The notes beneath the pieces were generated by a model that was not told the DNA's origin, ran no database searches, and saw only the letters and a list, made by a program, of their open reading frames with translations. From assembly GCF_003790525.1 (NCBI RefSeq), contig NZ_CP033635.1: a stretch of 64,000 nucleotides of DNA. One strand, written 5' to 3'. Shown piece after piece: positions 12,521 through 55,719 of the stretch. The stretch is from Escherichia coli (GTDB lineage Bacteria > Pseudomonadota > Gammaproteobacteria > Enterobacterales > Enterobacteriaceae). Both the position numbers and the translations under genes were made by a program. Position 1 is the stretch's first letter; every line of letters begins with the position of its first letter.

Positions 12521-13708
12521 ATGAACTTATCCCTACGACGCTCTACCAGCGCCCTTCTTGCCTCGTCGTTGTTATTAACCATCGGACGCGGCGCTACGCT
12601 GCCGTTTATGACCATTTACTTGAGTCGCCAGTACAGCCTGAGTGTCGATCTAATCGGTTATGCGATGACAATTGCGCTCACTATTGGCGTCGTTTTTAGC
12701 CTCGGTTTTGGTATCCTGGCGGATAAGTTCGACAAGAAACGCTATATGTTACTGGCAATTACCGCCTTCGCCAGCGGTTTTATTGCCATTCCTTTAGTGA
12801 ATAACGTGACGCTGGTGGTGCTCTTTTTTGCCCTTATTAACTGCGCCTATTCCGTTTTTGCTACCGTGTTGAAAGCCTGGTTTGCCGACAATCTTTCGTC
12901 CACCAGCAAAACGAAAATCTTCTCAATCAACTACACCATGCTCAACATTGGCTGGACCATCGGTCCGCCGCTCGGCACGTTGTTGGTGATGCAGAGCATC
13001 AATCTGCCCTTTTGGCTGGCAGCTATCTGTTCCGCGTTTCCCATGCTTTTCATTCAAATTTGGGTAAAGCGCAGCGAGAAAATCATCGCCACGGAAACAG
13101 GCAGAGCCTGGTCGCCGAAAGTTTTATTACAAGATAAAGCACTGTTGTGGTTTACCTGCTCTGGTTTTCTGGCTTCCTTTGTTAGCGGCGCATTTGCCTC
13201 GTGCATTTCACAATATGTGATGGTGATTGCTGATGGGGATTTTGCCGAAAAGGTGGTCGCGGTTGTTCTTCCGGTGAATGCTGCCATGGTAGTTACGTTG
13301 CAATATTCCGTGGGCCGCCGCCTTAACCCGGCTAACATCCGCGCGCTGATGACAGCAGGCACCCTCTGTTTCGTCATCGGGCTGGTCGGTTTTATTTTTT
13401 CCGGCAACAGCCTGCTAATGTGGGGTATGTCAGCTGCGGTATTTACTGTCGGTGAAATCATTTATGCGCCGGGCGAGTATATGTTGATTGACCATATTGC
13501 GCCGCCAGGAATGAAAGCCAGCTATTTTTCCGCCCAGTCTTTAGGCTGGCTTGGTGCTGCGATTAACCCATTAGTGAGTGGCATAGTACTTACCAGTCTG
13601 CCGCCTTTCTCGCTGTTTATCATCTTAGCGTTGGTGATCGTTGCTGCGTGGGTGCTGATGTTAAAAGGAATTCGTGCAAGACCGTGGGGGCAGCCCGCGC
13701 TTTGTTGA
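12521..13708 (+). CDS. ydeE: MFS transporter YdeE
   Basis: 395 aa 12-TM MFS protein at the expected position. Confidence 0.8.
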   Translation: MNLSLRRSTSALLASSLLLTIGRGATLPFMTIYLSRQYSLSVDLIGYAMTIALTIGVVFSLGFGILADKFDKKRYMLLAITAFASGFIAIPLVNNVTLVVLFFALINCAYSVFATVLKAWFADNLSSTSKTKIFSINYTMLNIGWTIGPPLGTLLVMQSINLPFWLAAICSAFPMLFIQIWVKRSEKIIATETGRAWSPKVLLQDKALLWFTCSGFLASFVSGAFASCISQYVMVIADGDFAEKVVAVVLPVNAAMVVTLQYSVGRRLNPANIRALMTAGTLCFVIGLVGFIFSGNSLLMWGMSAAVFTVGEIIYAPGEYMLIDHIAPPGMKASYFSAQSLGWLGAAINPLVSGIVLTSLPPFSLFIILALVIVAAWVLMLKGIRARPWGQPALC

Positions 13709-13834
13709 TTTAAGTCGAACACAATAAAAATTTAATTCAGCCTTCGTTTAGGTTACCTCTGCTAATATCTTTCTCATTGAGATGAAAATTAAGGTAAGCG
13801 AGGAAACACACCACACCATAAACGGAGGCAAATA

Positions 13835-13930
13835 ATGCTGGGTAATATGAATGTTTTTATGGCCGTACTGGGAATAATTTTATTTTCTGGTTTTCTGGCC
13901 GCGTATTTCAGCCACAAATGGGATGACTAA
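13835..13930 (+). CDS. mgtS: small membrane protein MgtS (YneM), 31 aa
   Basis: MLGNMNVFMAVLGIILFSGFLAAYFSHKWDD with RBS GGAGG; followed by a hairpin terminator. Confidence 0.8.
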   Translation: MLGNMNVFMAVLGIILFSGFLAAYFSHKWDD

Positions 13931-13985
13931 TGAACGGAGATAATCCCTCACCTAACCGGCCCCTTGTTACAACTGTGTACAAGGG

Positions 13986-14100
13986 GCCTGATTTTTATGA
14001 CGGCGAAAAAAAACCGCCAGTAAACCGGCGGTGAATGCTTGCATGGATAGATTTGTGTTTTGCTTTTACGCTAACAGGCATTTTCCTGCACTGATAACGG
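13986..14100 (-). ncRNA. mgrR: probable PhoP-regulated sRNA MgrR (boundaries approximate)
   Basis: minus-strand intrinsic terminator (CCGCCGGTTTACTGGCGG + U8, about 13986-14012) and upstream PhoP-box-like direct repeat GTTTAA-N5-GTTTAA (14137-14154); known locus between mgtS and dgcZ. Confidence 0.45.
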
Positions 14101-14148
14101 ATCGTTGACACAGTAGCATCAGTTTTCTCAATGAATGTTAAACGGAGC

Positions 14149-15039
14149 TTAAACTCGGTGAATCACGTTTTGTTCGTCAATAAACATACAGCGATTTCTT
14201 CCGGTTTGCTTACCCTCATACATTGCCCGGTCCGCTCTTCCAATGACCACATCCAGAGGCTCTTCAGGAAATGCGCGACTCACACCTGCTGTCACGGTAA
14301 TGTTGATATGCCCTTCAGAATGTGTGATGGCATGGTTATCGACTAACTGGCAAATTCTGATACCTGCACGACATGCTTCTTCATCATTATCCGCTTTGAC
14401 AATAATGATAAATTCTTCGCCCCCGTAGCGATAAACCGTTTCGTAATCACGCGTCCAACTGGCTAAGTAAGTTGCCAGGGTGCGTAATACTACATCGCCG
14501 ATTAAATGCCCGTAGGTATCATTAACCAATTTAAATCGGTCAATATCCAACAACATTAAATAAAGATTCAGAGGCTCAGCGTTGCGTAACTGATGATCGA
14601 AGGATTCATCAAGAACCCGACGACCCGGCAATCCCGTCAAAACATCCATATTGCTACGGATCGTCAGTAAATAAATTTTGTAATCGGTTAATGCCGCAGT
14701 AAAAGAAAGCAACCCTTCCTGAAAAGCGTCGAAATGCGCGTCCTGCCAGTGATTTTCAACAATAGCCAACATTAATTCCCGACCACAGTTATGCATATGT
14801 TGATGGGCAGAATCCATTAGCCGAACGTAAGGTAATTCATCGTTATCGAGTGGCCCCAGATGATCAATCCACCGACCAAACTGGCACAGTCCATAAGAAT
14901 GGTTATCCGTTATTTCTGGCTTACTGGCATCTATCGCGACCACGCTGTGAAACATACTTACCAGCCACTGGTAGTGGGCATCGATAGCCTTATTGAGATT
15001 TAACAAGATGGCATCAATTTCCGTTGTCTTCTTGATCAT
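14149..15039 (-). CDS. dgcZ: zinc-sensing diguanylate cyclase DgcZ (CZB + GGDEF)
   Basis: 296 aa; GGEEF motif present; recognised DgcZ/YdeH sequence. Confidence 0.9.
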   Translation of the reverse strand: MIKKTTEIDAILLNLNKAIDAHYQWLVSMFHSVVAIDASKPEITDNHSYGLCQFGRWIDHLGPLDNDELPYVRLMDSAHQHMHNCGRELMLAIVENHWQDAHFDAFQEGLLSFTAALTDYKIYLLTIRSNMDVLTGLPGRRVLDESFDHQLRNAEPLNLYLMLLDIDRFKLVNDTYGHLIGDVVLRTLATYLASWTRDYETVYRYGGEEFIIIVKADNDEEACRAGIRICQLVDNHAITHSEGHINITVTAGVSRAFPEEPLDVVIGRADRAMYEGKQTGRNRCMFIDEQNVIHRV

Positions 15040-15293
15040 TGCCACTCCTTTTTCACAGTTCCTTGTGCGCGCTATTCTAACGGGAGAAAAGCAAAATTAC
15101 GTCAATATTTTCATAGAAATCCGAAGTTATGAGTCATCTCTGAGATAACATTGTGATTTGAAACAAAATCAGCAGATAAAAAAGTGTTTAATTCTGTAAA
15201 TTAACTCTGCATTATCGCAATTAAAAGGATGACAAATAGCATAACCCAATACCCTAATGGCCCAGTAGTTCAGGCCATCAGGCTAATTTATTT

Positions 15294-15686
15294 TTATTTC
15301 TGCAAATGAGTGACCCGAACGACGGCCGGAGCGCTTTTCTTATCCAGACTTCCGCTAATGTTGATCATCTGGTCCGGCTGAACTTCTCGTCCATCAAAGA
15401 CTGCCGCAGGAATAACAACATTAATTTCACCGCTCTTATCGCGAAAAACGTAACGGTCTTCTCCTTTGTGAGAAATCAAATTACCGCGCAGTGAAACCGA
15501 AGCGCCATCATGCATGGTTTTTGCGAAATCAACGGTCATTTTTTTTGCATCATCGGTTCCGCGATAGCCATCTTCTATTGCATGAGGCGGCGGTGGCGCT
15601 GCATCCTGTTTTAATCCGCCCTGGTCATCTGCCAACGCATAAGGCATGACAAGAAAACTTGCTAATACAATGGCCTGAAATTTCAT
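15294..15686 (-). CDS. ydeI: periplasmic OB-fold (BOF/YgiW family) protein YdeI
   Basis: 130 aa with signal peptide. Confidence 0.8.
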
Positions 15687-15925
15687 ACTGACTCCTTAAT
15701 TGCGTTTGGTTTGACTTATTAAGTCTGGTTGCTATTTTTATAATTGCCAAATAAGAATACTGCCAATTGTTATAAGGCATTTAAAATCAGGCTACTAGAT
15801 GTCAAATATTCAGAGAATTTAACTCACTAAAGTTAAGAAGATTGAAGAGTCTTAAACATATTTCAGAACAATCAGATTTATAAATTTGAAAATTATTATA
15901 ACGGAAGAGTATACAAAAAAGTAAT

Positions 15926-16003
15926 TTTGCTGGCGACTGCGAAACGGCATTCGCATTAGCGGTGAAGTTTGCCCTCGCCCAGCTGCTGCAATTACTGCTA
16001 TAA
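15926..16003 (+). pseudogene. ydeJ: 3' remnant of ydeJ (CinA/PncC C-terminal-domain paralog); 5' part replaced by AT-rich sequence
   Basis: short in-frame tail FAGDCETAFALAVKFALAQLLQLLL* matching a CinA-like C-terminus; only about 360 bp between ydeI and dcp. Confidence 0.45.
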
Positions 16004-16047
16004 CGAGGCTGGTCTGGCGATAAATCCAGGCCAGCCATTGGTGGTGT

Positions 16048-18093
16048 TTATACGTTCAAGCCACGATGTTGCAGCATCGGCATAATCTGAGGTGCCTTAC
16101 CGCGCCATTGTCGATACAGGCGTTCCAGATCCTCGCTGTTACCTCTGGAAAGGATCGCCTCGCGAAAACGCAGCCCATTTTCACGCGTTAATCCGCCCTG
16201 CTCAACAAACCACTGATAACCATCATCGGCCAACATTTGCGTCCACAGATAAGCGTAATAACCCGCGGCATATCCGCCACCAAAAATATGGGCGAAATAA
16301 CTGCTGCGATAGCGTGGCGGTATAGCGGGAAGATCCATATTTTCCGCCACCAGCGCCCGCAATTCAAAATCATCGACATCCTGCATTGCTTCGTTTTCTT
16401 CCAGGCAATGCCAGCGCATATCGAGAAGTGCGGCGCTAAGCAGTTCGCTCATCTCATACCCTTTGTTGAACAGGCTGGCATTACGCATTTTCTGTTGCAG
16501 TTCGTCAGGCATTGCTGCCCCGCTCTGATAATGCCGGGCGTAGCGAGCGAATACCTGCGGATGTGTTGCCCAGTGTTCGTTGATTTGCGACGGAAATTCG
16601 ACAAAATCACGCGGCGTGTTGGTGCCGGAAAGCGTGGCATAACGCTGGCGGGCAAAAAGGCCGTGCAGCGTATGACCAAATTCATGGAATAAGGTTATTA
16701 CATCATCCCAGAGTAACAACGCAGGCTCACCGGCAGCGGGTTTCTGATAATTGCAGACGTTATAAATTACCGGATGCGTTTCATTAAGCGTTGATTGCTC
16801 AACAAAATTGCCCATCCATGCACCGCCGCTTTTTGAATCACGGGCGAAGAAATCACCGTAAAATAACGCCAGCCCCACGCCATTATGATCAAAAATTTCC
16901 CACACCCGAACGTCAGGATGGTAGACAGGAATATCAAAACGTTCGACAAACTTAATACCGAAGAGCTGATTCGCGGTCCAGAATACACCTTCATTCAACA
17001 CCGTGTTTAATTCAAAATATGGCTTGAGCTGCGATTCATCGAGATCGAATTTCTCACGTCTTACCTGCTCGGCATAAAATGCCCAGTCCCACGGCTGCGC
17101 GCTAAACCCGCCCTGCTGCTTATCAATAATCGCCTGTATGGAGGCTAACTCATCGCTCGCACGTTGACGCGCCGCTGGAACAATTTCCCGCATAAAGTTG
17201 AGCGCTGCTTCTGGCGTTTTTGCCATCTGATCGGCGATTTTCCATGCGGCATAATGAGGAAAACCAAGCAGTTTCGCCTGCTGCGCGCGGATCTCCACCA
17301 GACGTTGAATGATAGCGCGGGTGTCATTGGCATCATTTTTTTCCGCTCGCATCCAGCCCGCAGTAAACAGTTTTTCACGCGTCGCGCGATCGCACAGTTC
17401 AGCAAGCGCTGGTTGTTGGGTGGTATTCAGCAGCGGAATCAGCCATTTGTTATACAGACCTTTCTCGCGAGCCGCCTCTGCCGCCAGCACAATCTCTTGC
17501 TCACTCATTCCTGCCAGCTGCGCGATATCGTTCACAACCAGACCGCCGGATTTATTTGCTGCCAGTAACCGCTGGTTAAACTGGCTGGTCAGGGTCGCAG
17601 CTTCTGTATTCAGTACTTTTAATTTTGCTTTATCAGCTTGCTTAAGTTTGGCTCCGGCAAGGACAAAACGTTGATGAATCACCTCCACCAGGCGGATGGA
17701 TTCACTATCAAGCCCCAGGGATTCACGGCGCTGCCAGACAGCATCTACCCGCGCGAATAATTCCCCGTTCAGATAGATATCATTCGCAAGTTCCGCCAGT
17801 TCAGCGGAAAACTGTTCATCAAGACGCTGTAATTCATCATTGGTATGCGCCGCAGTCATCGCAAAAAAGACGCTGGTAACGCGGGTAAGTAATTCTCCGC
17901 TTTGTTCCAGTGCCAGAATAGTATTGTTGAAATCAGGTGTTTGCGGGTTAAGCGCGATGGCAGCAATTTCTGCCCGCTTTTGCTGCATTCCCTCATCGAA
18001 TGCCGGGCGATAGTGATGATTGGCAATTTGATCAAAATGGGGAGCCAGATACGGCAGTGTGCTTTGCACAAGGAAAGGATTCATTGTTGTCAT
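16048..18093 (-). CDS. dcp: dipeptidyl carboxypeptidase II (M3 family)
   Basis: 681 aa from MTTMNPFLVQS; HEFGH zinc motif. Confidence 0.92.
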   Translation of the reverse strand: MTTMNPFLVQSTLPYLAPHFDQIANHHYRPAFDEGMQQKRAEIAAIALNPQTPDFNNTILALEQSGELLTRVTSVFFAMTAAHTNDELQRLDEQFSAELAELANDIYLNGELFARVDAVWQRRESLGLDSESIRLVEVIHQRFVLAGAKLKQADKAKLKVLNTEAATLTSQFNQRLLAANKSGGLVVNDIAQLAGMSEQEIVLAAEAAREKGLYNKWLIPLLNTTQQPALAELCDRATREKLFTAGWMRAEKNDANDTRAIIQRLVEIRAQQAKLLGFPHYAAWKIADQMAKTPEAALNFMREIVPAARQRASDELASIQAIIDKQQGGFSAQPWDWAFYAEQVRREKFDLDESQLKPYFELNTVLNEGVFWTANQLFGIKFVERFDIPVYHPDVRVWEIFDHNGVGLALFYGDFFARDSKSGGAWMGNFVEQSTLNETHPVIYNVCNYQKPAAGEPALLLWDDVITLFHEFGHTLHGLFARQRYATLSGTNTPRDFVEFPSQINEHWATHPQVFARYARHYQSGAAMPDELQQKMRNASLFNKGYEMSELLSAALLDMRWHCLEENEAMQDVDDFELRALVAENMDLPAIPPRYRSSYFAHIFGGGYAAGYYAYLWTQMLADDGYQWFVEQGGLTRENGLRFREAILSRGNSEDLERLYRQWRGKAPQIMPMLQHRGLNV

Positions 18094-44157: not shown

Positions 44158-44322
44158 ATGGCAAAGCCGATCATCACGCTCAATGGCCTAAAAATCGTCA
44201 TTATGTTGGGAATGCTGGTCATTATTCTCTGCGGTATCCGTTTTGCCGCCGAGATCATCGTGCCGTTTATTCTCGCATTATTTATTGCTGTTATATATAA
44301 CTTATTTCGCTTAACTAATTGA
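44158..44322 (+). pseudogene. tqsA: tqsA 5' fragment (first ~45 codons, then foreign tail and stop) cut by the inserted element
   Basis: [45 protein letters not shown] then IYNLFRLTN*; the rest of the gene resumes at 55720. Confidence 0.85.
44286..44294 (+). repeat. left copy of 9-bp junction direct repeat TGCTGTTAT (candidate att core/overlap)
   Basis: identical 9-mer at 55720-55728; flanking bases differ on both sides. Confidence 0.6.
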
Positions 44323-44365
44323 TTTAATTAAATAATTTGCACTACAAAAAGTGCCAAAAATCGCA

Positions 44366-44391
44366 AATTAACTACACCATTAACTACACCG
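44366..44391 (+). repeat. left copy of 26-bp direct repeat AATTAACTACACCATTAACTACACCG (tandem 12-mer; candidate integrase arm-type sites)
   Basis: exact copy at 55567-55592; followed in both copies by a related ACAACGTG(G/A)AACAA motif. Confidence 0.6.
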
Positions 44392-45466
44392 TTCGGCGCA
44401 CTGTATGAAACAACGTGGAACAAATAGACACAAGCGGCAGGCTATACCGTTATCATTTTTCAGCTATCCGTCATGAAGCTGGTGGATGATCACGGATAAC
44501 CAGGCATCTACAGCGCCTTAAAAAGCTGAACCCGACAAACATTTCTGCTTATCGGGTCCGATCGCTCTTTCTACTCGTGGCAGATGAGTTTACTAGGAAG
44601 GGGGGAACATTGTATCAGGCTATCCCCTTTCTGTGCTGATTCGGCTGGTGAATGATCTACTTGGGGCACTACACTTTTCGGATAGTGCGGGTATCCGGTT
44701 TTCTGCCTCATCGAATTTTAAGCCTTCTGACGGCCTGTATATCATTTCCTGTGGAGTTGCCGCCCTGATAGCGAATACTGCGGCAGCATGTGATTTACCC
44801 CCCGTTCTGTTGATGTTTGATGTGGCTGGTTGATGTGCTGCCATGTTTTCCGCCAATGGTGGAAAAGCCCACCAGCGCAACGCAGGACGCATAAAACCAT
44901 TGCGATGACTCTGGACGCAAAACCACGTTTAACGATGTTTTGCACTGAACCAGAATACTGTTCGTTTTTGTCTCGATGTCCGTACGTATTACGTCCGCAC
45001 CTAATCCGGCATCATGCCCACCAGCGTAACGCATTTTTTTAATTTCGTGGCTGTGCGTCCACCAGCTACGCCGGAATGGGGTATTCCGTTTCAACGGAAC
45101 AGGTATGACGAACATAATCGCACCTTCTCCCGAAAACGGTGCGACCTGCATCATCGAAATGGTGATTCAGCTACTCGGCGATTTTCACCATTCAGAATCT
45201 GGCGGGTGAGTTATCCAGCTTCCACCAATGGGGGATTCTGGAACAATCAACGGGTTACGCCTTATCAGCAAAAAAGCACATCAACTGTAAAGGAAATCGT
45301 TATGGTTGCTGGTGGGCTGCGTCACCATCATGGTGATGATGCTGTCCAGTCAGCCGGAACGGTTGAACAGGGTGGCTATGGGTCACTCTGTTGTGCGTTA
45401 TTTGCGTGATCCTGGTACGGGGTGACTATCTTTCAGATAGTCGGTTGCCTGGTTACACGAAAAAAT

Positions 45467-45769
45467 TTACTTCCTGCGTTTATCCTGCTTTGTATGCCCG
45501 TGCTGAATGCCCCGCAGTGGATCTTCTTTTTTCAGGTCGATCCCCATGTCCGTTAGTGTTTTTGTGGCGGCGGTTCTTATGGCACAAATCAGGTCTCTTT
45601 CCGGTTCCCGGGTTATGGTTGCCTTCCGGATGCATGCCGTTCGTCGTTCCGTTACATACTGACGCGCTTCATCACTTGCCGCCTGTTTCAGTAACTCACC
45701 CCAGCGATTAGCCGCCCGTCGCCATAAACCTTTCGCTTCCAGTTCTTCCGCTTTGTCATCATGCACCAT
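45467..45769 (-). CDS. ANR-like small regulator, paralog 2 (start at MVHDD.. assumed)
   Basis: MVHDDKAEELEAKGLWRRAANRWGELL... parallels the protein at 49352-49624. Confidence 0.55.
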   Translation of the reverse strand: MVHDDKAEELEAKGLWRRAANRWGELLKQAASDEARQYVTERRTACIRKATITREPERDLICAIRTAATKTLTDMGIDLKKEDPLRGIQHGHTKQDKRRK

Positions 45770-45883
45770 AAGCATAATCCCATTGATACCTGTTAACTCT
45801 GAATGGTTGGTTTCTGTTCTTTTGATAATTTCCCGCATAGCTTATTGTATGACAGTACTGTCCCACAATAAGGAGTTGCACGC

Positions 45884-46174
45884 ATGAGAATGACTAGGCA
45901 CAAAAAACAGATTCTTGAACTCTACAAACCTGAGTATCGCGATTGGGTGCGGGTGGAGGCCGGAGATCCGCCTTTTGATGTTCGTGGTGTGACAGTGCTG
46001 CTCTATGGTTCCGAATATCGGCGATATCACATAGAGGCAACACGAAGGACGCTAAACGCTATGGTTCGTGATAAGTTGCTGGAGCGTGTGAAAGTCCGTG
46101 AGCCACGTTTTGATGTGCGTATTGGTGGCGATGGTGCGCATTGCACGGTAATCCGCTATGGCCTGGTAAGGTAA
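45884..46174 (+). CDS. hypothetical protein (96 aa), divergent from the ANR-like gene
   Basis: ORF with upstream AGGAG-like RBS; no recognisable family. Confidence 0.4.
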   Translation: MRMTRHKKQILELYKPEYRDWVRVEAGDPPFDVRGVTVLLYGSEYRRYHIEATRRTLNAMVRDKLLERVKVREPRFDVRIGGDGAHCTVIRYGLVR

Positions 46175-46276
46175 GCCATCGGGTAAATCAGATGATTAAA
46201 TCACCAGAATGTAAATTTACATTCTGCCAGCCACCAGCTACCCTCCTCAAAATTGAGGACCCTTTTTATCAACTGG

Positions 46277-46558
46277 TTACCGCCGCAACCGTTCCGGCTT
46301 CTTCCACTGATAAGTGTTTTTCGCGCTCTCCTGATACATCGCCACGCGTCGACGGTATGCCAGCAACTCTAGTACTCTGATTCGTATGTCGCGCATATCC
46401 ACGCCGTTAAGCTCAATACCATCACGGCGCATTACATCAGCAACAACACGCACATAATTTTCGGCGGTCACGCTGTCCGGCTGCGTGGCCTGTTCGTCAT
46501 GCTGCTGGCTGATTCCGGTAACGCGGCGGATTAATCCCAGTAGTTCGACTTCTGTCAT
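46277..46558 (-). CDS. hypothetical protein (93 aa) adjacent to cos copy A; start taken at internal Met
   Basis: MTEVELLGLIRRVTGI...; the longer ORF 46277..46756 would read through the cos site and is judged an artefact. Confidence 0.4.
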   Translation of the reverse strand: MTEVELLGLIRRVTGISQQHDEQATQPDSVTAENYVRVVADVMRRDGIELNGVDMRDIRIRVLELLAYRRRVAMYQESAKNTYQWKKPERLRR

Positions 46559-46570
46559 TGTGCCCCCATC

Positions 46571-46648
46571 GCTCTGATAGTCTGGTGTCGTCGGGTCCTT
46601 TCCGGCATGTGGACCCGTTACGGGGCGTCGACCTCGCGCGTTTTCACT
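46571..46648 (+). other. lambda-like cos site copy A (cosQ-cosN-left-arm homology); cosN-like 12-mer GGGCGTCGACCT at 46602-46613
   Basis: GGGTCCTTTCCGG...GTTACG GGGCGTCGACCT CGCGCGTTTTCACTATTTATGAAAATTTTTCGG closely matches the recalled lambda cos junction (lambda cosN GGGCGGCGACCT). Confidence 0.75.
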
Positions 46649-46664
46649 ATTTATGAAAATTTTT

Positions 46665-46775
46665 CGGGATCCATGTCCGGTTTCTCTGCAAGTTAACCAT
46701 ATGAAAAATATAAAAACATGCTTTCCATGAACCGGACATGCGCAAAAAACAGACACTAAAACCGGACATCGAACC
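46665..46775. repeat. three CCGGACAT motifs in alternating orientation next to cos copy A (candidate cosB-like terminase-docking sites)
   Basis: ATGTCCGG near 46671, CCGGACATG near 46729, CCGGACATC near 46763. Confidence 0.45.
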
Positions 46776-46837
46776 AGTTAACCGAAAGTGTGCACAAATC
46801 ACATTCATTGCTGCGAGTGATTAACAAGTTATCGGCT

Positions 46838-47272
46838 TTACTGTTCTGTATCGGCTGATTGCTCCATGCTGGCACGGCGAACGCTTACGGCATGACGCCA
46901 CCCAGCCAGAAAGCCAGCCATTTTATTTCGTGCCTTGCTCACATCTTCCGGTGAATAGCCGTAAATATGCAAACCTTCATCAAATCGATGTTCTGTTTCT
47001 TCACTGGAGTACTCGTCACGCTCAGATGAAAGCAGCCTCGCAAACATAATTTTTTCCAGCGCACTGGTTTCTACGTGATATCCGATGGTCTGAAGATGGC
47101 TTTTACCTGAATACCAAAGCAATGTATGCCCGATGTGATAACCGCCAGACTTTCCGCGATCCGCATTAAGATACGGCATCCCCTGTTTGGTCCATGCGCG
47201 AATAGTGGTTCTGTTAACCTTGAAATGTTCAGCTATTTCCTGCTGACTTACAAAACAAGCTTTATCAATCAT
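46838..47272 (-). CDS. Nu1-like small terminase-type DNA-binding protein (wHTH N-terminus, divergent C-terminus); possibly a packaging-redirection factor
   Basis: VSQQEIAEHFKVNRTTIRAWTKQGMPYL aligns with lambda Nu1 VNKKQLADIFGASIRTIQNWQEQGMPVL; 144 aa versus 181 aa for Nu1. Confidence 0.65.
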   Translation of the reverse strand: MIDKACFVSQQEIAEHFKVNRTTIRAWTKQGMPYLNADRGKSGGYHIGHTLLWYSGKSHLQTIGYHVETSALEKIMFARLLSSERDEYSSEETEHRFDEGLHIYGYSPEDVSKARNKMAGFLAGWRHAVSVRRASMEQSADTEQ

Positions 47273-47334
47273 AATGTTACCTTAACTGCATGGTTAAATA
47301 TCAATCAAGTGGTGGTGGTGTCACCTTCACGGAA

Positions 47335-47405
47335 AAACGTCATAAATAGCGAAAACGTGCGAGGTCGACGCCCCGTAACGGGTCCACATGCCGGAAAGGA
47401 CCCGC
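47335..47405 (-). other. lambda-like cos site copy B, inverted relative to copy A; cosN-like 12-mer (reverse complement) at 47362-47373
   Basis: reverse complement reads GGGTCCTTTCCGGCATGTGGACCCGTTACG GGGCGTCGACCT CGCACGTTTTCGCTATTTATGA; lies about 70 bp upstream of the terS-like start in the lambda cosN-to-Nu1 orientation. Confidence 0.7.
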
Positions 47406-47428
47406 AAAAAAAGCCGGATTTCTCCGGC
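47406..47428 (-). terminator. intrinsic terminator after the capsid/decoration genes
   Basis: minus strand GCCGGAGAAATCCGGC followed by U7. Confidence 0.65.
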
Positions 47429-47502
47429 CTTGTCTCAGATGGTTTTCAGTATGCGATAGATGTCGCCGTCATCGCCCTGGTTTGTGCCATCGTTCCCCCT
47501 GC

Positions 47503-47838
47503 TTATCGGGCCAGCGGCTGAACGGATACGCCGGAACCCGCAAAGGCGGCGCATTTTTTCGCATCGGTGTCGACGCTCTCAGGCCAGTTAACGGCGGCAA
47601 TATTGAATATCCCCGTCTTGTAACACTGTGCTGATTTCTGCTTTGACGTGTCCACAGGGTACGAGGTCAGATAAACAGCCTTGCCAGATTCCTTACCATC
47701 CCACGCCTTAAACTCGCCATTGTCTGCCAGCATCAGCGGGGTAAATTCCTGAATAACGCCAGCATCAGCGGCAAAATGTACCAGCGTCGTGGATACCTGT
47801 TGGCTGCCTGAAAATAACTCAATGTATGGAGCGTCCAT
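47503..47838 (-). CDS. lambda gpD-like head decoration protein
   Basis: TPLMLADNGEFKAWDG and AFAGSGVSV match lambda gpD TPLMLDTSSRKLVAWDG and AFAGTAISIV; 111 aa. Confidence 0.8.
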   Translation of the reverse strand: MDAPYIELFSGSQQVSTTLVHFAADAGVIQEFTPLMLADNGEFKAWDGKESGKAVYLTSYPVDTSKQKSAQCYKTGIFNIAAVNWPESVDTDAKKCAAFAGSGVSVQPLAR

Positions 47839-47849
47839 AGAATCCCCCG

Positions 47850-48905
47850 TTAAGCAATTTTGACGGTAACAAATTTGCGAATATCTGCCGGTACAGGCTG
47901 CGGTGCGCTGTGCGTCTGCACGTACTCAATCGCCGGATCGCCGTCCTCAATCCAGTTTTTCGGGTAGTACATGTTTTGCGTTGCGCCCGTTCTTACCGCT
48001 TCCTGATCCATAATCGCACCATATGCCACCAGCCCTTTATTGTTGGTGTTACCCAGGACCAGCAAATCAGGCTCAAGGAAATATTTTTCGGTCCCGTCGC
48101 TGTCAGTGTATTTGCCGGAATAGACGATAAGGGCCAGATCACCAAGATAGCCTTTAAAGCTCACCACTTCGCCCAGGTTTTTACAGGCCAGCTCGGCGGC
48201 GGATTCTGATCCACGGGAAAGATCGTACAGTTCACGGAATTTTTTAAAGCTGCGTAATGTGCGCCATACCTCACCGCCCATAATCATGACGTTGGCGGGG
48301 CAACCTGCCTGATCAGCATAAAGCTCGATGTCATAGATTGGGTCGTGCATGTCTTTATCCTGCTGGGACCATTTTTTACCACTGGCCTGCTGTATGATGC
48401 AGTTTTCCGGTATTTTCCAGTCGATTTCATAGCGTTCTATGCCTTCGCCCTCAATGATGTTTTTTCCGGTCGTTACCGCATTCACCGCCAGCCATTCCAC
48501 GCGCGCCTTAATGGCGTTTATCTGGCGGCGCATGTTGCCAGTAATCAGGCGCATACGGCGGTAAGTTGGATCGTTAAGCTGTGCCGGATCTTCTCCATCC
48601 ATGCGCATGATGGTCTTTGTTGGATCGATTTCGTGCTTTGGCTTCATGTAGCCTGGTTTAATCGTGCTGGTTTCGTACCCTTTATCGCGCTGGACCTGAC
48701 TACCCACCATAGGAGAACAGAACGCTGACATCGTAACCTCTTCAATGTCCAGGGTGTCCAGCATGATGTTTTGGGTGTTGAAGGTCGCCACGTTCGGGAA
48801 AAACAGCGTGGTAAACAGCGGACTAAATTTATATTCCGAAATATCCCCGCGATTCAGGTACGCGAAAAGCTGGTTAGTTGTAAGTGCCTTTGCTTTGCCT
48901 GTCAT
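47850..48905 (-). CDS. lambda gpE-like major capsid protein
   Basis: 351 aa; KPGYMKPKHEIDPTKT, DPTYRRMRLITGNMRR and YPKNWIEDGDPA...SAP...FVTVKIA align with lambda gpE along the whole length. Confidence 0.85.
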   Translation of the reverse strand: MTGKAKALTTNQLFAYLNRGDISEYKFSPLFTTLFFPNVATFNTQNIMLDTLDIEEVTMSAFCSPMVGSQVQRDKGYETSTIKPGYMKPKHEIDPTKTIMRMDGEDPAQLNDPTYRRMRLITGNMRRQINAIKARVEWLAVNAVTTGKNIIEGEGIERYEIDWKIPENCIIQQASGKKWSQQDKDMHDPIYDIELYADQAGCPANVMIMGGEVWRTLRSFKKFRELYDLSRGSESAAELACKNLGEVVSFKGYLGDLALIVYSGKYTDSDGTEKYFLEPDLLVLGNTNNKGLVAYGAIMDQEAVRTGATQNMYYPKNWIEDGDPAIEYVQTHSAPQPVPADIRKFVTVKIA

Positions 48906-49111
48906 TATTCACCTCCGTGAACCTGATTGATACCCAGCGCCGCACGCAAATAGGTGCGCACCTGCCAGCCTGTTGACGGCTCAACCATCGCCAGCGGATC
49001 AAGTCCTGCCGCAATGCCTGCTTTTACATTCTGCTGGTGGCGTTCCTTGAGCGCCTCCACGATGTCGGGGCTTATGTAGACCGTCACCCCGCCTTTTTTC
49101 TCTTCTGCCAT
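48905..49111 (-). CDS. hypothetical 68-aa protein translationally coupled (TAATG) to the capsid gene
   Basis: stop overlaps the gpE-like ATG; first gene of the capsid operon. Confidence 0.5.
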   Translation of the reverse strand: MAEEKKGGVTVYISPDIVEALKERHQQNVKAGIAAGLDPLAMVEPSTGWQVRTYLRAALGINQVHGGE

Positions 49112-49145
49112 AGTCAGAAATTCCTCTTTGACTTAAAAAATCATA

Positions 49146-49163
49146 ACTGGATGTTCATCCAGT
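49146..49163. promoter_or_regulatory. perfect palindrome ACTGGATG-TT-CATCCAGT upstream of the capsid operon (candidate operator/activator site)
   Basis: 8-bp arms with 2-bp spacer, about 35 bp upstream of the first operon ATG (49111). Confidence 0.4.
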
Positions 49164-49322
49164 CCTGATTATAATCATGATTGCATTTTGCGCAACAATA
49201 TTGAGTTACGTTGCAAATTATGAAATGATTATCCCGATCATGTGTGTCAGTTCACCATAAAAAACCTCGTATACAAAAGCCCCATAAGCCCCCTGTGACC
49301 TTATCGGGCTTTTTTTAGGCGT

Positions 49323-49344
49323 AAAAAAGCCGGATTGCTCCGGC
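49323..49344 (-). terminator. intrinsic terminator after the ANR-like gene (same stem family as 47406-47428)
   Basis: minus strand GCCGGAGCAATCCGGC followed by U6. Confidence 0.6.
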
Positions 49345-49351
49345 TGTGTGC

Positions 49352-49624
49352 TCACTTCTGCGGGTAGTTGCGCCATATTGCTTTGCCAATACCAGCTATC
49401 CCCATTTGTTTTTCAGTGCGATTAACTGACCTTTTCAGAGCGCCTAAATCATCCGGCGGCTCCGGTGGCCTCTGTGCCTTACGGATACATTCCGCGCGAC
49501 GCATTGCCACCTGTTCGCGCTCCTTGTCTGTCTCCACCAGCCTCATAACTTCACCCCATCGCGCCGCCGCCCTCCGGTAAAAGCCTTTTGCCTCGAGTTC
49601 CTCCGCTATGCGGTCATGTACCAT
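49352..49624 (-). CDS. ANR-like small regulator, paralog 1 (start at MVHDR.. assumed)
   Basis: MVHDRIAEELEAKGFYRRAAARWGEVM...; longer ORF start would overlap ssb. Confidence 0.55.
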   Translation of the reverse strand: MVHDRIAEELEAKGFYRRAAARWGEVMRLVETDKEREQVAMRRAECIRKAQRPPEPPDDLGALKRSVNRTEKQMGIAGIGKAIWRNYPQK

Positions 49625-49634
49625 CGTCACCCCC

Positions 49635-50045
49635 TCAGAACGGAATATCATCACCGTAAGGGTCATCGCCTCCCGCTGGTGGCTGATTACCCTGTGTGCC
49701 TGTGGTTTTGCGTCTGTTCCCGCCAGGACGTGCCGCACGGGCACTGATTACGCTGTCTGCAATAACCTGCCAGCCCTGCCGCGTTTCCCCGTTCTGTCCG
49801 GTCCACTGGCTGACCTGCATCGTGCCGGATACGCTGGCAACGTCGCCTTTTTGATGTTTAGCCAGAAAGTCGGCCTGTTTGCCAAATGCGATGACCGATA
49901 ACCATAACGTCGCCTGTCCGTCCTGTGCCTGGCCGCATGGTAAAGATACCGCCATACGCGCCAGCGTCATCGGTGTACCCTTACTGGTCTGTTTTACCTG
50001 CGGGTCGTCCACCAGCCGCCCGTAAGCTGCTATCTGTGCTGTCAT
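49635..50045 (-). CDS. single-stranded DNA-binding protein (SSB-like OB fold with acidic DDIPF tail)
   Basis: 136 aa; C-terminal ...DPYGDDIPF typical of SSB; Gly/Pro-rich linker. Confidence 0.75.
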   Translation of the reverse strand: MTAQIAAYGRLVDDPQVKQTSKGTPMTLARMAVSLPCGQAQDGQATLWLSVIAFGKQADFLAKHQKGDVASVSGTMQVSQWTGQNGETRQGWQVIADSVISARAARPGGNRRKTTGTQGNQPPAGGDDPYGDDIPF

Positions 50046-50284
50046 GCTGTCTGCTCTCCGGTTTTAACGTTGATGGTTGTTACCTGTTCTGCTTCGGCAA
50101 TATCCCGCTCTGTCAGCGTGGCAAAGTTTGCCGCCGTCGTTGTCATGAATGCGCTTATCAGTTCGGGATGTGCTTTCGCGTATCCTTCCCCTGTGTTGCG
50201 GTCGATGATTTTTATCGCCACCCTCAGCCAGTGCTCTGTAAGGTCAATGGCGCGGTGATCTGTCTTTTTGTGGCTTACCTTCAT
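50042..50284 (-). CDS. hypothetical protein (80 aa)
   Basis: ORF overlapping the ssb start (coupled); no recognisable family. Confidence 0.45.
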   Translation of the reverse strand: MKVSHKKTDHRAIDLTEHWLRVAIKIIDRNTGEGYAKAHPELISAFMTTTAANFATLTERDIAEAEQVTTINVKTGEQTA

Positions 50285-50287
50285 GAT

Positions 50288-50611
50288 TTACTCCAGAGTA
50301 CCGCTATTGCTGCTGTCGTTAACCGGATACCAGGCAAATACCATCGATTCACCACAGTGAACAAACTTCTTATCCGGCAGATAAAGGCACTCGCACATTC
50401 CCTCATCAGGACTATGCGGACTCATGCCCAGCTCACTGGTCAGCACGGGTAAGATTTCGCGGCAGGTGTTCCCCGCACCGAAATAATCAACCTCACAAAG
50501 CGCCCATGCAGCAATCGGGCTGTACCATTCCGTGCCGTCGTCGTCTTTGAACTTAGCCCACCAGCCAGGAAGGGCAGTTGATATGCTCAGTGTTTCAATT
50601 TCAGTGTTCAT
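50288..50611 (-). CDS. hypothetical protein (about 107 aa; start uncertain)
   Basis: ORF 50288..50656 with internal Met; Cys-rich, no recognisable family. Confidence 0.45.
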   Translation of the reverse strand: MNTEIETLSISTALPGWWAKFKDDDGTEWYSPIAAWALCEVDYFGAGNTCREILPVLTSELGMSPHSPDEGMCECLYLPDKKFVHCGESMVFAWYPVNDSSNSGTLE

Positions 50612-50659
50612 AAATTTACCTTCGGTATTTTGTCCTGCTGTTCGATTTTTATTCATTGC

Positions 50660-50870
50660 TCACCATCTCTCACTTTTACTACTCACTTTTTAAAGCGTCT
50701 CGCTTCGTCTCACTTGAGATTTTTGTGTTTTGTATGTGCATGTTTCATAAGTGTTTTTTCACTGCTCACTTTTGAGCATGTATACAGGTGAGAAAGTGAG
50801 TAATTGTGTTAATATTTTGTAAAAACCTCACCATTACTCACTTTTACTACTCACTTTTTACAGTGGTCCT
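50660..50870. repeat. iteron array (CTCACTT heptamers, two 24-bp direct repeats) - candidate replication origin of the element
   Basis: at least 6 direct and 2 inverted CTCACTT copies between 50669 and 50856; CTCACTTTTACTACTCACTTTTTA at 50669 and 50839; directly 3' of the primase-helicase gene. Confidence 0.6.
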
Positions 50871-52264
50871 ACATCATCACCATCAATGTAAATCACGGCG
50901 TCTTTTTCCAGTTTGGCTAACCATCGCCGCATATTTTTCACGTCATACCCAAGCCGTTTCATGTCATCACGTAACAGCGGGATCGTGCACTTGTCGCCGT
51001 TCTGTGTGCGTGAACGGATGCACCCCCATAGCGCGGTATGGTTTTCCGTCTTGTTGCCTGCCTCCTCGATGCGCTCCAGTTCAGCAGGGGCGCGGGGAAC
51101 GTCAATCACCACCATGGACACAATTTCTTCGCCATCTGTATCGGTGAACACCTCCACGCTTTTAAGGTCGTATGCACTCTCTTTTGGCTCCTCTGCGTCC
51201 TTCATCTTCGTACACGCCGCAACCAGTGCTGTAACGTCTGAATTTTCCCTGCTGATTCGGTACTCTGCATCAAGCGCGGCACGGAATGCACTGGAACCAC
51301 GCGCCCCCTTTGTTTCATCCTTGCCGGAATGGTGAACCACCAGCACCGTGGCCCCTGTGGCCTGCTTTATCGCGTCACACCCCTGGATAAATGCGCCCAT
51401 ATCACGGGAATCATTTTCATCATTCCCACCAAAGCAACGGGCCAGCGTGTCGATCACAATCAGCCGCACATTTTCGCCCGTTCTGCTCTTAACAAGTCCG
51501 GCAGTCCTGATAACCTGCTCCACATAGTCAGGCGATGCAGGGAAAACAGGCGCGTTAATGATGCACAAATCTGTAACCACCTTGTCGTGGGTTATCTCCC
51601 ACGCCTTAACGCGGCGTTTTACGCCCATGCTGCCTTCACCAGCGATATAGATAACCGCACCCTTACTTACCCTGCGGCCTCCCCATGCCATACCTGTGGC
51701 AACATGGCACGACCAGGAAATGGCGAGGAACGATTTATAAGAACCGCTGGCCCCGTAGGTGCTGCATAATGACTCAGCCGGAATAAGCCCCTTAATGACG
51801 TAGCTTTGCTGCGCATCGAATCCCTCAGAACCCCATGAGATGGGAAGTGTGATTTTTCGCTTTCCGCCATTCATGACCAGGCTTTCCCCTCTCTCCCATG
51901 TTTCCCGTAGTCGTGGTAGCTGGTCGCTCCAGTCCTCCAGCAGTTCGAAATTTTCAGAAAGTAGCCGCGCCTCCTGGACTCCGGCGATCGCCAGTTTTGT
52001 GGCAATGGTCAGCATCTGCATATCGTCCAGGTTTCCGGCGCGTATGACCTTTACCCTGTATCGTCCTTCATCAACAATCTGTAAGTTGTCCAGTTCGCTT
52101 AACTGATAACGGCCCAGATAAACCGGAGGGATGGGATCGCCTGCTTTTTTGGCCTGTGCAATCATGTAATGTTCTGCAAAGGAGTGAGCATTATCACCCG
52201 CAAAAATAACCGCCTCAGTGTGTTTATCTTTCGGTAACAGTTTTACGTTCGGTGCAAGTTTCAT
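50858..52264 (-). CDS. replication initiator: primase-associated N-domain + RecA-like/AAA helicase (pri-rep type)
   Basis: 468 aa; Walker A GASGSYKS, Walker B LIVIDTL, VLVVHHSGKD; C-terminal wH-like tail. Confidence 0.8.
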   Translation of the reverse strand: MKLAPNVKLLPKDKHTEAVIFAGDNAHSFAEHYMIAQAKKAGDPIPPVYLGRYQLSELDNLQIVDEGRYRVKVIRAGNLDDMQMLTIATKLAIAGVQEARLLSENFELLEDWSDQLPRLRETWERGESLVMNGGKRKITLPISWGSEGFDAQQSYVIKGLIPAESLCSTYGASGSYKSFLAISWSCHVATGMAWGGRRVSKGAVIYIAGEGSMGVKRRVKAWEITHDKVVTDLCIINAPVFPASPDYVEQVIRTAGLVKSRTGENVRLIVIDTLARCFGGNDENDSRDMGAFIQGCDAIKQATGATVLVVHHSGKDETKGARGSSAFRAALDAEYRISRENSDVTALVAACTKMKDAEEPKESAYDLKSVEVFTDTDGEEIVSMVVIDVPRAPAELERIEEAGNKTENHTALWGCIRSRTQNGDKCTIPLLRDDMKRLGYDVKNMRRWLAKLEKDAVIYIDGDDVGPL

Positions 52265-52548
52265 TTCTTACCCCCTGCGACCAGCATTTCACGGATTTTG
52301 CGGATATAACTTGCAGCACGTTTCTGATTAACGGCTTTACGATGGCCCACCAGCGTGAAATCACGCCGGAACTGATAAACAGGCATAACGCAGTCATATT
52401 CGTAGCCTTCACGGCGGTAAGTGATGCGACGTTCCTCCACGCCCTTAATCATTACCGTGCCGCCGTAGTTATCACGGAAAATATCGCCGGGACGGATTTC
52501 AGGACGAGCGGGGCCGCTGGCATTAACGCCAGAATTTTTATTTTTCAT
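52261..52548 (-). CDS. hypothetical protein (95 aa) translationally coupled to the replication gene
   Basis: stop overlaps the downstream start; basic protein. Confidence 0.45.
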   Translation of the reverse strand: MKNKNSGVNASGPARPEIRPGDIFRDNYGGTVMIKGVEERRITYRREGYEYDCVMPVYQFRRDFTLVGHRKAVNQKRAASYIRKIREMLVAGGKK

Positions 52549-52553
52549 GTTTT

Positions 52554-52781
52554 TTATTCTCCGGTGTGCTGTTCTTTATATCTGTCGTGAATTGCCATCA
52601 CTGTATTTAATTCATTAATAACAGCCGTTAATAGCGTACGCACGGCAGAAAACATCATTGAATCAGATTCATCGCCACTTTCCTGCACATCAATTAAATT
52701 AAGTAGTAATGCGTCCATTTCCTTTGCGCGGATTAATGCCTTTTCACAATGAAAAATAACACCAAAGGGTATTTTATTCAT
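52554..52781 (-). CDS. hypothetical protein (about 75 aa)
   Basis: ORF with internal Met start; first gene after the divergent operator region. Confidence 0.4.
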   Translation of the reverse strand: MNKIPFGVIFHCEKALIRAKEMDALLLNLIDVQESGDESDSMMFSAVRTLLTAVINELNTVMAIHDRYKEQHTGE

Positions 52782-53056
52782 GACTCCCCTCCTGACGGAT
52801 ACGGGCGGCGAATACAGCGACACAACCGGACGGGCAACGGTTACGCGCTTCGCGTTCCGTCCAGGCGGTCACGTGGATAATTTGAGATTCTCCGGCACTC
52901 AGTGCCAGAAAACGCCACACAAAGGCGGTTTGTGTGTGCGCTAGTCGTGGGGTATGCTGTGTTCCAGCCATAATCGTTACTCCTGTTAACGGTTTGGTTA
53001 GACGCCCTGCATGTGTTACAGCACTGCGGGGCGTTGTCTTTTTAACGGCTTTCGTG

Positions 53057-53104
53057 ATAGGGTGTACACCTATCAAGCAAAAACATAACGCTATAGGTGT
53101 ACAC
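53057..53104. promoter_or_regulatory. two TAGG(G)TGTACAC palindromic operator-like sites immediately upstream of the RHH gene
   Basis: ATAGGGTGTACACCTAT at 53057-53073 and ATAGGTGTACAC at 53093-53104, ending at the ATG. Confidence 0.6.
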
Positions 53105-53299
53105 ATGTCAACAGTTATTAAGCGAGATAAAAAACCAAAGGGAACAGGAAAAGCCCCCCCATTCCATATGCGAATAGCTCCAGAACTGAAAGAGCAGTTT
53201 GATAATGAGGCCAGCAATGATGGGGTAAGCCTAGCCAACTGGCTTAAAGAGTTGGGGCGCGCCGAACTAAAGCGACGCGGCATTGAACCTAAAGGCTGA
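53105..53299 (+). CDS. ribbon-helix-helix (CopG/Arc-like) DNA-binding protein, 64 aa
   Basis: beta-strand/helix pattern PFHMRIAPELKEQF...SLANWLKELGRAEL typical of RHH regulators/antitoxins. Confidence 0.6.
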   Translation: MSTVIKRDKKPKGTGKAPPFHMRIAPELKEQFDNEASNDGVSLANWLKELGRAELKRRGIEPKG

Positions 53300-53302
53300 T
53301 GT

Positions 53303-53428
53303 ATGACTGAAAAGCAGACCGATAACAAACTTTCTCTACCAGAGAATAAACCAGCAGGCTTCTTACCAAGAAAAATCCTTGATGAGATCAAACGCCGCCA
53401 GCGCCGCAAGGCCAAAGAGCAGGAATAG
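53303..53428 (+). CDS. small basic ORF (41 aa) immediately downstream of the RHH gene
   Basis: ATG 4 nt after the RHH stop; product MTEKQTDNKLSLPENKPAGFLPRKILDEIKRRQRRKAKEQE. Confidence 0.3.
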   Translation: MTEKQTDNKLSLPENKPAGFLPRKILDEIKRRQRRKAKEQE

Positions 53429-53752
53429 CCCACCAGCAAGCCAGCACACTGATCACATTGGCCACCGTGACAGGTGGCCTTTTCTTTGCCCGTTATCCGG
53501 CAATTGTGGCGCTTCGCCACACGGTTGATATAATTCCCCTGCTCAGATTCATTTTTTGCGCGGCAGGTAAATTGTTCAGAAAGGCGGCTCCTTATCGGGG
53601 CCGCTTTTTTTATGTCTGAAAAACCGCGATTTTGTTGTTTTTCAGTTTCACCAGGCCGAACGAAGCCCCGCCCATGTTCGGGCGTATATCCAGTCTTCAT
53701 GGTTAAATCTCTGTATTAGTGGATGGGTGGCGGCTGTGTGCCGCCAGTCTTT

Positions 53753-53941
53753 TTAGTGAACTGCCTCGCAGCTTTCCTTCCATGCCAGAACTTCGGATAA
53801 AGACCAGCCAACGGAACGACCGCCCAGCTTACGCCGTGATGGGAATTGTCCGGCCTTTTCCAGGCGGTAGCGGCATGAGCGGCTAAGGCCTGTTAGCTTT
53901 TCGCATTCTTTTTCACGTATAAAGCGATCAGTGCTTAACAC
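53753..53941 (-). CDS. alpA: AlpA/Vis-family phage regulatory protein (excisionase-like)
   Basis: 62 aa; ...IREKECEKLTGLSRSCRYRLEKAGQFPSRRKLGGRSVGW... typical AlpA fold signature. Confidence 0.8.
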   Translation of the reverse strand: MLSTDRFIREKECEKLTGLSRSCRYRLEKAGQFPSRRKLGGRSVGWSLSEVLAWKESCEAVH

Positions 53942-54315
53942 TATTGCCCCCTTTCGTTTCTTAAAGAGTTATTTCGTGTTCTATTGCGTTGGGATGTGTC
54001 TGATTGTGTCAGGGTGATTCAGAGTTGGCAAATGTTGGTGGCGGGTATTTTACAGAAACGGGGTGATTTTAATAAAAATCATTTTAATTCAGTATTATGC
54101 AAAGGCATAAAATCTCGTTTTATGCCTTTTTTCTCACTATTTAAAGCGTTATTCGCTAATGTATAAAAAACCAGTTGAGCATTAAAAATCAGCAACTTAT
54201 AAATCTGTATACTTTTTGACCTCTTGTTCGTGGTTGTTTCACGTTGTTGTGTATTGTTGCACGTTGTATCTGTGCACTTATCCAGTATGCGCATACTGAA
54301 AAAACACGAAAAAAA

Positions 54316-55566
54316 TTATTTTCTTCTGGCTACTGGTAGCGTGGTTACGTTTTCATGTGCTCCCGCCAGTATCTCCAACCGCTCCACCCACATATCCAGC
54401 GCATTGCGTTTCGCATCCAGATAACGGGAATGATTATAAACTCGCTGCATTCCTGGCATCTGGTGGCCTGTAAGCTGCTCCACGACGTGAGGATCCACGC
54501 CTAAATCGTTCAGCATCGTTGTAAAGGTGCGCCGGATGTCATGCAGTGACCATTGAGGGTGTTTTAGCCTCCTGTGCGCTAATCTGCCGTACTGCGATAC
54601 GCTGGCCTCCTGTTTCACTTCCCCCAGTAATAAGCCCGTGTGCCTGTTCTGCTCCACCAGCCGCGTGACGAACGGCAGGATCGCTTCCGGTATGGGCCGG
54701 AATATTGCGACCTTCGTTTTGCTGTGCTCCTTCGGAACGGTCCAGAGCATTTCCGTGAAATCCCACTCCCCGATCTCCGATAACCTCAGTTCTACCGTCC
54801 TGGCTCCGAAGACAATCAGGAGGCGGATTAGTGCGACGTAGTAAGGGGAAAATATTTTTTTGTCCAGTGCCTGCAATAATTCGCCCAGTTCTTTGGTGCT
54901 TAAGACACGTTCGCTTATATCCGGTTTTTTCCCAACGTCCGCCACGTTCAGATCGTCCAGAACGTTGCTGATTGCATAGCGCCGCCTCCGGCAAAACTTA
55001 AGCGCCTGTTTGCACGCCTGTAGCACGAATCCGGCAGTAACAGGCGTTCGCTTTGCCACCCGATCAAAACAGGCCAGCCAGTGCCGTAGCTCGCATTTAT
55101 CCAGCGGCATAGCACCAATGTGCTGTATTACGTGATTATTAAGTCGCCTTTTCAGGGCGATATAATCCACGCGGTTTTCCTTTACGTAAGACTCAAGCCA
55201 GTAGGTGAGCGCATCTCCAACCGTTACAGGCTTTAACGCTTCCTGCATGGTGTAATTCATCTCATGACGTGGATTTTTCCCCTCAGCCAGCCATGCGCGA
55301 CACTGGGCGGCTTTTTCCCTGGCTGATTTCAGGCTCAGATCAGGATAATTTCCCAGCTTAATACGTTCCGGTCGTGTCTCTCTTCCCGTTCCGGCCCTGT
55401 AAGTGAAATACCAGGTTAAAAGGCCGCTGGTTGAATGCCTGACGCTCAGATTTCCACCGTCATTAAGAAAGGCTGTTTTTTGGGCGGGTGTGCCGTTGAT
55501 TTTCCTTAGCTGTGTATCGCTCAGCTTGTTAAGTGCTCTGGTCATAATTTTGAATCCGGTCATCAC
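54316..55566 (-). CDS. int: tyrosine site-specific integrase (P4-type)
   Basis: 416 aa; C-terminal catalytic region with ...HDIRRTF... and ...LTGHQMPGMQRVYNH... (R..H..R..Y). Confidence 0.88.
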   Translation of the reverse strand: MMTGFKIMTRALNKLSDTQLRKINGTPAQKTAFLNDGGNLSVRHSTSGLLTWYFTYRAGTGRETRPERIKLGNYPDLSLKSAREKAAQCRAWLAEGKNPRHEMNYTMQEALKPVTVGDALTYWLESYVKENRVDYIALKRRLNNHVIQHIGAMPLDKCELRHWLACFDRVAKRTPVTAGFVLQACKQALKFCRRRRYAISNVLDDLNVADVGKKPDISERVLSTKELGELLQALDKKIFSPYYVALIRLLIVFGARTVELRLSEIGEWDFTEMLWTVPKEHSKTKVAIFRPIPEAILPFVTRLVEQNRHTGLLLGEVKQEASVSQYGRLAHRRLKHPQWSLHDIRRTFTTMLNDLGVDPHVVEQLTGHQMPGMQRVYNHSRYLDAKRNALDMWVERLEILAGAHENVTTLPVARRK

Positions 55567-55592
55567 AATTAACTACACCATTAACTACACCG
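55567..55592 (+). repeat. right copy of the 26-bp direct repeat AATTAACTACACCATTAACTACACCG
   Basis: exact copy of 44366-44391, directly upstream of the int start codon. Confidence 0.6.
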
Positions 55593-55719
55593 ATCGTTGC
55601 ACAAAGGGCTACAACGTGAAACAAGCTGGAACAAGAAAAATCACAAATTTGTTTATAATCAAAAACATAATGCACAACCTGAAACATTATGAAACGGCAA
55701 AAAACACTAATTGATAAAG

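Follow-up and report, generated by a model that had tools for sequence, protein, structure and literature searches.

A single old deletion in ydeJ very probably accounts for the short ydeI-dcp gap of an Escherichia coli chromosome

Why does an Escherichia coli chromosome have only a short gap at a position where K-12 carries a complete gene? In the stretch of 64,000 nucleotides analysed here (the window), the local gene order is ydeE, mgtS/mgtT, dgcZ, ydeI, the gap, dcp and ydfG. In K-12, ydeI and dcp flank ydeJ, a plus-strand gene of 519 bp. A preliminary description of this DNA had put the separation of ydeI and dcp at about 360 bp; measured from the start of ydeI (15686) to the stop of dcp (16048), it is 361 bp. 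It had also assumed that a full-length ydeJ is to be expected at the locus; indeed, the gene is present in 3,607 of 5,426 complete E. coli genomes, about two thirds (at least 80% of the K-12 gene covered).

Both neighbouring genes are intact. ydeI (15294-15686, minus strand) is an open reading frame of 130 amino acids, divergent from the former ydeJ and identical at 393 of 393 positions to ydeI of strain 2016C-3878, whose protein (WP_000671737.1) has the same accession in K-12. This strain provides the closest genome, 99.9% identical to the window at the ydeI-dcp locus. On the other side, dcp (peptidyl-dipeptidase Dcp; 16048-18093, minus strand) is also an intact reading frame, annotated over 2046 bp in the closest genome and convergent with what is left of ydeJ.

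Some other features of the window deserve mention in their own right. The Rfam family STnc560, an Hfq-binding sRNA, is matched over its full length at 13924-14137 on the minus strand (280 bits, E = 2e-65), directly downstream of dgcZ and antisense to the 3' end of mgtS and to mgtT; this is the sole Rfam match in 13500-16300. Between ydeE and mgtS, strain 2016C-3878 has a segment of 1.5 kb that contains ftrA and a rhodanese-like gene (13695-13733 of the window, set against L004 18637-20152), and this segment is absent from the window, K-12 and 042. Finally, an element of 11.4 kb (44294-55720), absent from the closest genome, sits in the 5' part of tqsA and splits that gene; its flanks have a common 9-bp core, TGCTGTTAT. 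In the best-matching genomes it encodes an integrase, an Icd-like protein, a RepA-family helicase, SSB, PerC regulators, a major capsid protein and head-decoration proteins, and it has the appearance of a capsid-encoding phage satellite. Only 3 of the 5,426 genomes contain 80% or more of the element.

The 3' remnant of ydeJ

The remnant (15924-16003, plus strand, 80 bp) consists of two nucleotides of codon 147, codons 148-172 and a TAA stop; positions 15926-16003 translate as FAGDCETAFALAVKFALAQLLQLLL followed by the stop. It lies divergently from ydeI and convergently with dcp, in the order, on the strand and between the flanks seen in K-12 and O157:H7, which is the position of a YdeJ orthologue. 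The last ~25 codons before dcp had been read as a CinA/PncC-type C-terminus of YdeJ, and this reading was borne out: the peptide shares 22 of its 25 residues with the C-terminus of K-12 YdeJ, and from the junction to dcp the DNA agrees with K-12 at 115 of 123 positions. The similarity is not due to chance, since the 25-residue peptide alone matches the NCBIfam YdeJ equivalog model NF002972 with E = 2e-6 (27.6 bits; model positions 148-172 of 175 only). Membership of NF002972 is defined by a full-length match above the curated cut-off of 201 bits; full-length K-12 YdeJ scores 329 bits, and the remnant falls below the cut-off. The remnant is a fragment of a YdeJ family member, not a functional member. 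K-12 YdeJ consists of a single CinA/PncC domain (Pfam PF02464, 162 bits) and at full length also matches TIGR00199 (204 bits); the Pfam search with the 25-residue remnant gave no match at E <= 1, to PF02464 or any other family.

No start codon or ribosome-binding site is left for the remnant, and no open reading frame of about 172 codons is found in its place. An in-frame TAA lies upstream (15899-15901), with no ATG, GTG or TTG between this stop and the remnant. Because the start codon and the ribosome-binding site are both absent, the ydeJ remnant is a pseudogene. PGAP makes this call on the same 81 bp in strain 2016C-3878 ('incomplete; missing N-terminus'), and a pseudogene is annotated at the same place in other records inspected. 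The loss of ydeJ is therefore already annotated, RefSeq marking the stub as an N-terminally truncated pseudogene; our literature search found no paper describing the deletion. The 'hypothetical protein' that some RefSeq records place at the junction is this same plus-strand remnant. An antisense reading frame at 15802-16038 (78 aa) was considered as a junction-spanning gene and discarded, being without annotation in any RefSeq record inspected.

Between the convergent stops of ydeJ and dcp lies a GC-rich hairpin (16007-16036), in which 16007-16017 pairs with 16026-16036 to form an 11-bp stem closed by a loop of 8 nt. Its computed fold energy is -25.7 kcal/mol on the plus strand (z = -3.7) and -18.2 kcal/mol on the minus strand; the K-12 equivalent has -25.9 kcal/mol. 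The hairpin is probably a shared transcript-end structure. It is followed by no canonical T-run, and a scan with the terminator consensus returned no canonical terminator and did not call the hairpin.

Deletion endpoints and the AT-rich spacer

The preliminary description had proposed that most of ydeJ was removed by a deletion or a replacement, and that alignment with a full-length allele should define the endpoints. This alignment fixed them. Relative to K-12 the window has a single clean gap of 476 bp with no inserted bases, bases 2176-2651 of the K-12 locus (L002) being absent. The deleted stretch begins 37 bp before the GTG start (L002 2213) and takes in 439 bp, or 85%, of the ydeJ coding sequence, from codon 1 through codon 146 plus one base of codon 147. 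Alignments with K-12 and with other alleles placed the junction, GTA/A/TT, at 15921-15926: A15923 is the last base of the left flank, T15925 is the first unambiguous base of the right flank, and A15924 may be assigned to either, which leaves a microhomology of 1 bp. The same junction is found base for base in five divergent strains (042, W46, E25, ATCC 11775 and 2016C-3878). Compared with K-12 ydeJ (b1537; rdsA in Salmonella), the window thus agrees in locus, strand and frame, with homologous last 25 codons, stop and hairpin; it differs in missing the deleted part of the coding sequence, the start codon and the adjacent upstream bases, and no protein can be made from it.

In the A-run beside the junction (15915-15920), the window has A6 and every other deletion allele examined has A7. 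The difference may reflect genuine variation in the homopolymer or an error of sequencing. With a 92-bp query spanning the junction, the best identity across the genomes that carry it was 98.9%, never 100%.

The segment between ydeI and the remnant had been described as AT-rich filler. Its AT-richness was confirmed, with 27% GC at 15687-15925 (239 bp) against 48% for the whole window, and no gene is annotated in its equivalent in the RefSeq genomes inspected. It is not filler, however: 15687-15923 (237 bp) is the retained native spacer between the divergent ydeI and ydeJ, because the colinear alignment with K-12 runs from ydeI through the spacer and across the single gap into ydeJ. The 237 bp of the window correspond to the first 238 of the 275 bp of the K-12 spacer, which itself has 28% GC, and are identical to it at 167 of 174 and 51 of 60 positions in two blocks, 218 of 234 (93%) overall. 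Nor did the segment prove to be a known element. No match was obtained in the phage collection; the plasmid collection yielded no genuine match, only records of 4.8-4.9 Mb (evidently mislabelled chromosomes) or fragments of 43 bp; and Rfam covariance models gave no match at E <= 1 in 15687-16047. Being present and colinear in K-12, the segment does not qualify as the scar of a mobile element or as a foreign insert.

According to a published report, RcdA binds the spacer between ydeI and ydeJ and, under one condition, influences the expression of ydeI (PMC3535384). The exact RcdA box, TTGTNNACA, is absent from the spacer of K-12 and from that of one deletion allele. The retained spacer also contains a weakly conserved sigma-70-like site, TTGCCA-16-TAAAAT in K-12 versus CTGCCA-16-TAAAAT in the window. 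Promoter-consensus matches were close to background, with three observed, all weak, against 1.6 expected in shuffled sequence.

Distribution, direction and age of the loss

The junction of the window was found in 1,797 of the 5,426 complete genomes, about a third (at least 80% of the 92-bp query covered); the ydeJ deletion is thus not specific to this strain. Approximately 678 genomes carry the ydeJ deletion alone, as the window does, a number obtained by subtracting the genomes with full-length ydeJ from the 4,285 that cover at least 80% of a 1.2-kb query. In about 1,120 others the ydeJ deletion is accompanied by a nested deletion in ydeI, counted with a short asymmetric query at the second junction. 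The remainder, about 20 genomes, have neither full-length ydeJ nor the junction of the window.

The nested deletion, of 502 bp, has cost ydeI three-quarters of its length from the 5' end and has left only about 40 bp of the spacer; it is placed at L003 1629/1630 and at about L007 440 (strains E25 and ATCC 11775, respectively). It is carried by E2348/69, the type strain ATCC 11775, E25 and ZH193, which are without both YdeI and YdeJ. In these strains the ydeJ junction, the remnant and the hairpin are identical to those of the window; unlike them, the window does not have the second deletion and keeps ydeI and its spacer. The double-deletion allele derives from the window-type allele, since the first junction is unchanged in it. 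Strain 042, which we take to belong to phylogroup D, has the window-type allele; E2348/69, ATCC 11775 and ZH193 are presumably members of phylogroup B2. On commonly drawn E. coli trees, an allele common to 042 and the B2 strains but missing from K-12 and O157:H7 would call for recombination or ancestral polymorphism.

The direction of the change is apparent from the alleles themselves: the short allele is derived, because it contains an in-frame gene tail without a beginning. Moreover, full-length ydeJ is the ancestral state, since Enterobacter and Lelliottia carry a full-length homologue and Salmonella has a functional ydeJ. The homologues of Enterobacter chuandaensis and Lelliottia nimipressuralis share 55-56% identity with YdeJ and are separated by about 1.1 kb from a homologue of YdeI in divergent orientation. 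When genome contigs were searched with K-12 YdeJ, the matches listed were dominated by generic CinA-domain patterns and included no Escherichia or Salmonella locus; a 24-mer common to all alleles gave 0 exact matches in a scan of genome contigs, though ATCC 11775 contains it (L007 487-510).

As to age, the window and 042 are identical at 117 of 124 positions of the remnant (5.6% divergence) and at 226 of 234 positions of the spacer; across dgcZ, ydeI and dcp the two are 98.1-98.5% identical (1.5-2% divergence). Relative to the K-12/W46 state, the remnant of the window has three amino-acid-changing substitutions and one silent one, in two variable codon blocks; the W46 remnant is nearly K-12-like in sequence. 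The divergence of the remnant is consistent with an old event after which constraint was relaxed, on figures drawn from about 120-240 bp.

We are highly confident that the gap is the ydeI-ydeJ-dcp locus after one old deletion. In the scenario that we propose, a single event with almost no homology at its junction would have shortened the locus to its present length, removing with the start of ydeJ the last 37 bp of spacer before the GTG, where the ribosome-binding site would lie. It would have left 237-238 bp of native spacer, an untranslatable tail of 25 codons and the ydeJ/dcp hairpin. We infer that this happened once, long ago, and that the allele, being tolerated, has come down to about a third of present-day E. 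coli, 042, E2348/69 and ATCC 11775 included; ydeI would have been lost later, through the nested deletion, in the group of E2348/69 and ATCC 11775. For a cell with the allele of the window, the consequence would be the absence of YdeJ only, ydeI and dcp being untouched.

Several other explanations were weighed against this scenario. The low GC content of the segment, so different from that of the window, could be taken to mean that foreign AT-rich DNA took the place of most of ydeJ, be it the scar of an element or filler acquired horizontally; yet the K-12 spacer is just as AT-rich and colinear with the segment at 93% identity, there are no extra bases at the junction, the phage collection has no match and the plasmid-collection matches are chromosome-sized or of 43 bp, which makes a replacement exceedingly improbable. 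An assembly or sequencing artefact in the window can be given practically no weight either: the A6 beside the junction, where other deletion alleles have A7, might be a homopolymer error, but the same junction recurs in 1,797 independently assembled complete genomes. One may also ask whether the short allele is ancestral and the full-length ydeJ of K-12-like strains a later gain. Trees of E. coli often show phylogroups B2 and D branching close to the root, and the deletion allele occurs in both. However, a start-less in-frame 3' fragment cannot precede a whole gene that it matches at 22 of 25 tail residues, full-length ydeJ is found near ydeI in other Enterobacteriaceae and ydeJ in Salmonella, and the W46 remnant has stayed nearly K-12-like; this polarity is very unlikely.

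A last possibility accepts the deletion but holds that the remnant is more than debris, either because a surviving ydeJ promoter drives a short orphan transcript ending at the hairpin, or because remnant and hairpin are kept as the end of the dcp transcript. The conserved sigma-70-like site in the retained spacer speaks for it, as do the hairpin, kept in every allele including the double deletion, and the ydeJ promoter of Salmonella, which is active and responsive to supercoiling (PMC7387798). On the other hand, promoter matches are no commoner than in shuffled sequence and the -35 hexamer is weakened in the window; the B2 double deletion drops the promoter-like site without further change in the remnant; no Rfam family matches, and the substitutions in the remnant are mostly amino-acid-changing. 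We consider a retained role of this kind unlikely.

YdeJ function and the meaning of its absence

Among the three PncC homologues of E. coli, YdeJ is described as lacking NMN deamidase activity and as having mutated active-site blocks (PMC3855486). The full-length protein is a single-domain member of the CinA/PncC family (PF02464), to which the NMN deamidase PncC (YgaD) belongs; unlike PncC, it is reported to be catalytically inactive (PMC3855486), and the remnant keeps none of the active-site blocks. Loss of YdeJ is plausible given this missing activity and these mutated blocks. The product name given to the YdeJ family by PGAP and NCBIfam NF002972 is '2-oxo-tetronate isomerase'. EC 5.3.1.35 has been assigned in E. 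coli to b2739 (PMC12506659), and for a CinA/PncC-domain protein such as YdeJ the name looks like a mislabel.

In Salmonella, ydeJ is functional and has its own active promoter, which responds inversely to negative supercoiling; the DNA of a ydeJ mutant is more supercoiled, and the gene was renamed rdsA (PMC7387798). It is conceivable, though doubtful, that the natural deletion marks a lineage-wide difference in supercoiling homeostasis, or that an orphaned supercoiling-sensitive promoter drives a short non-coding transcript ending at the hairpin. The third of E. coli that is without YdeJ/RdsA includes the ExPEC-rich B2 lineages, in which ydeI was lost as well; in Salmonella, RdsA lowers negative supercoiling in a feedback loop.

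Taken alone, the deletion is of little importance, since it is a routine lineage-specific gene loss already flagged as a pseudogene in RefSeq. Nevertheless, its junction is a clean presence/absence marker that divides E. coli at a ratio of roughly 2:1, and a further large subgroup can be recognised by the nested ydeI deletion. Results obtained in K-12 or Salmonella on YdeJ/RdsA and YdeI are thus not transferable to the many pathogenic E. coli lineages that lack one or both genes.
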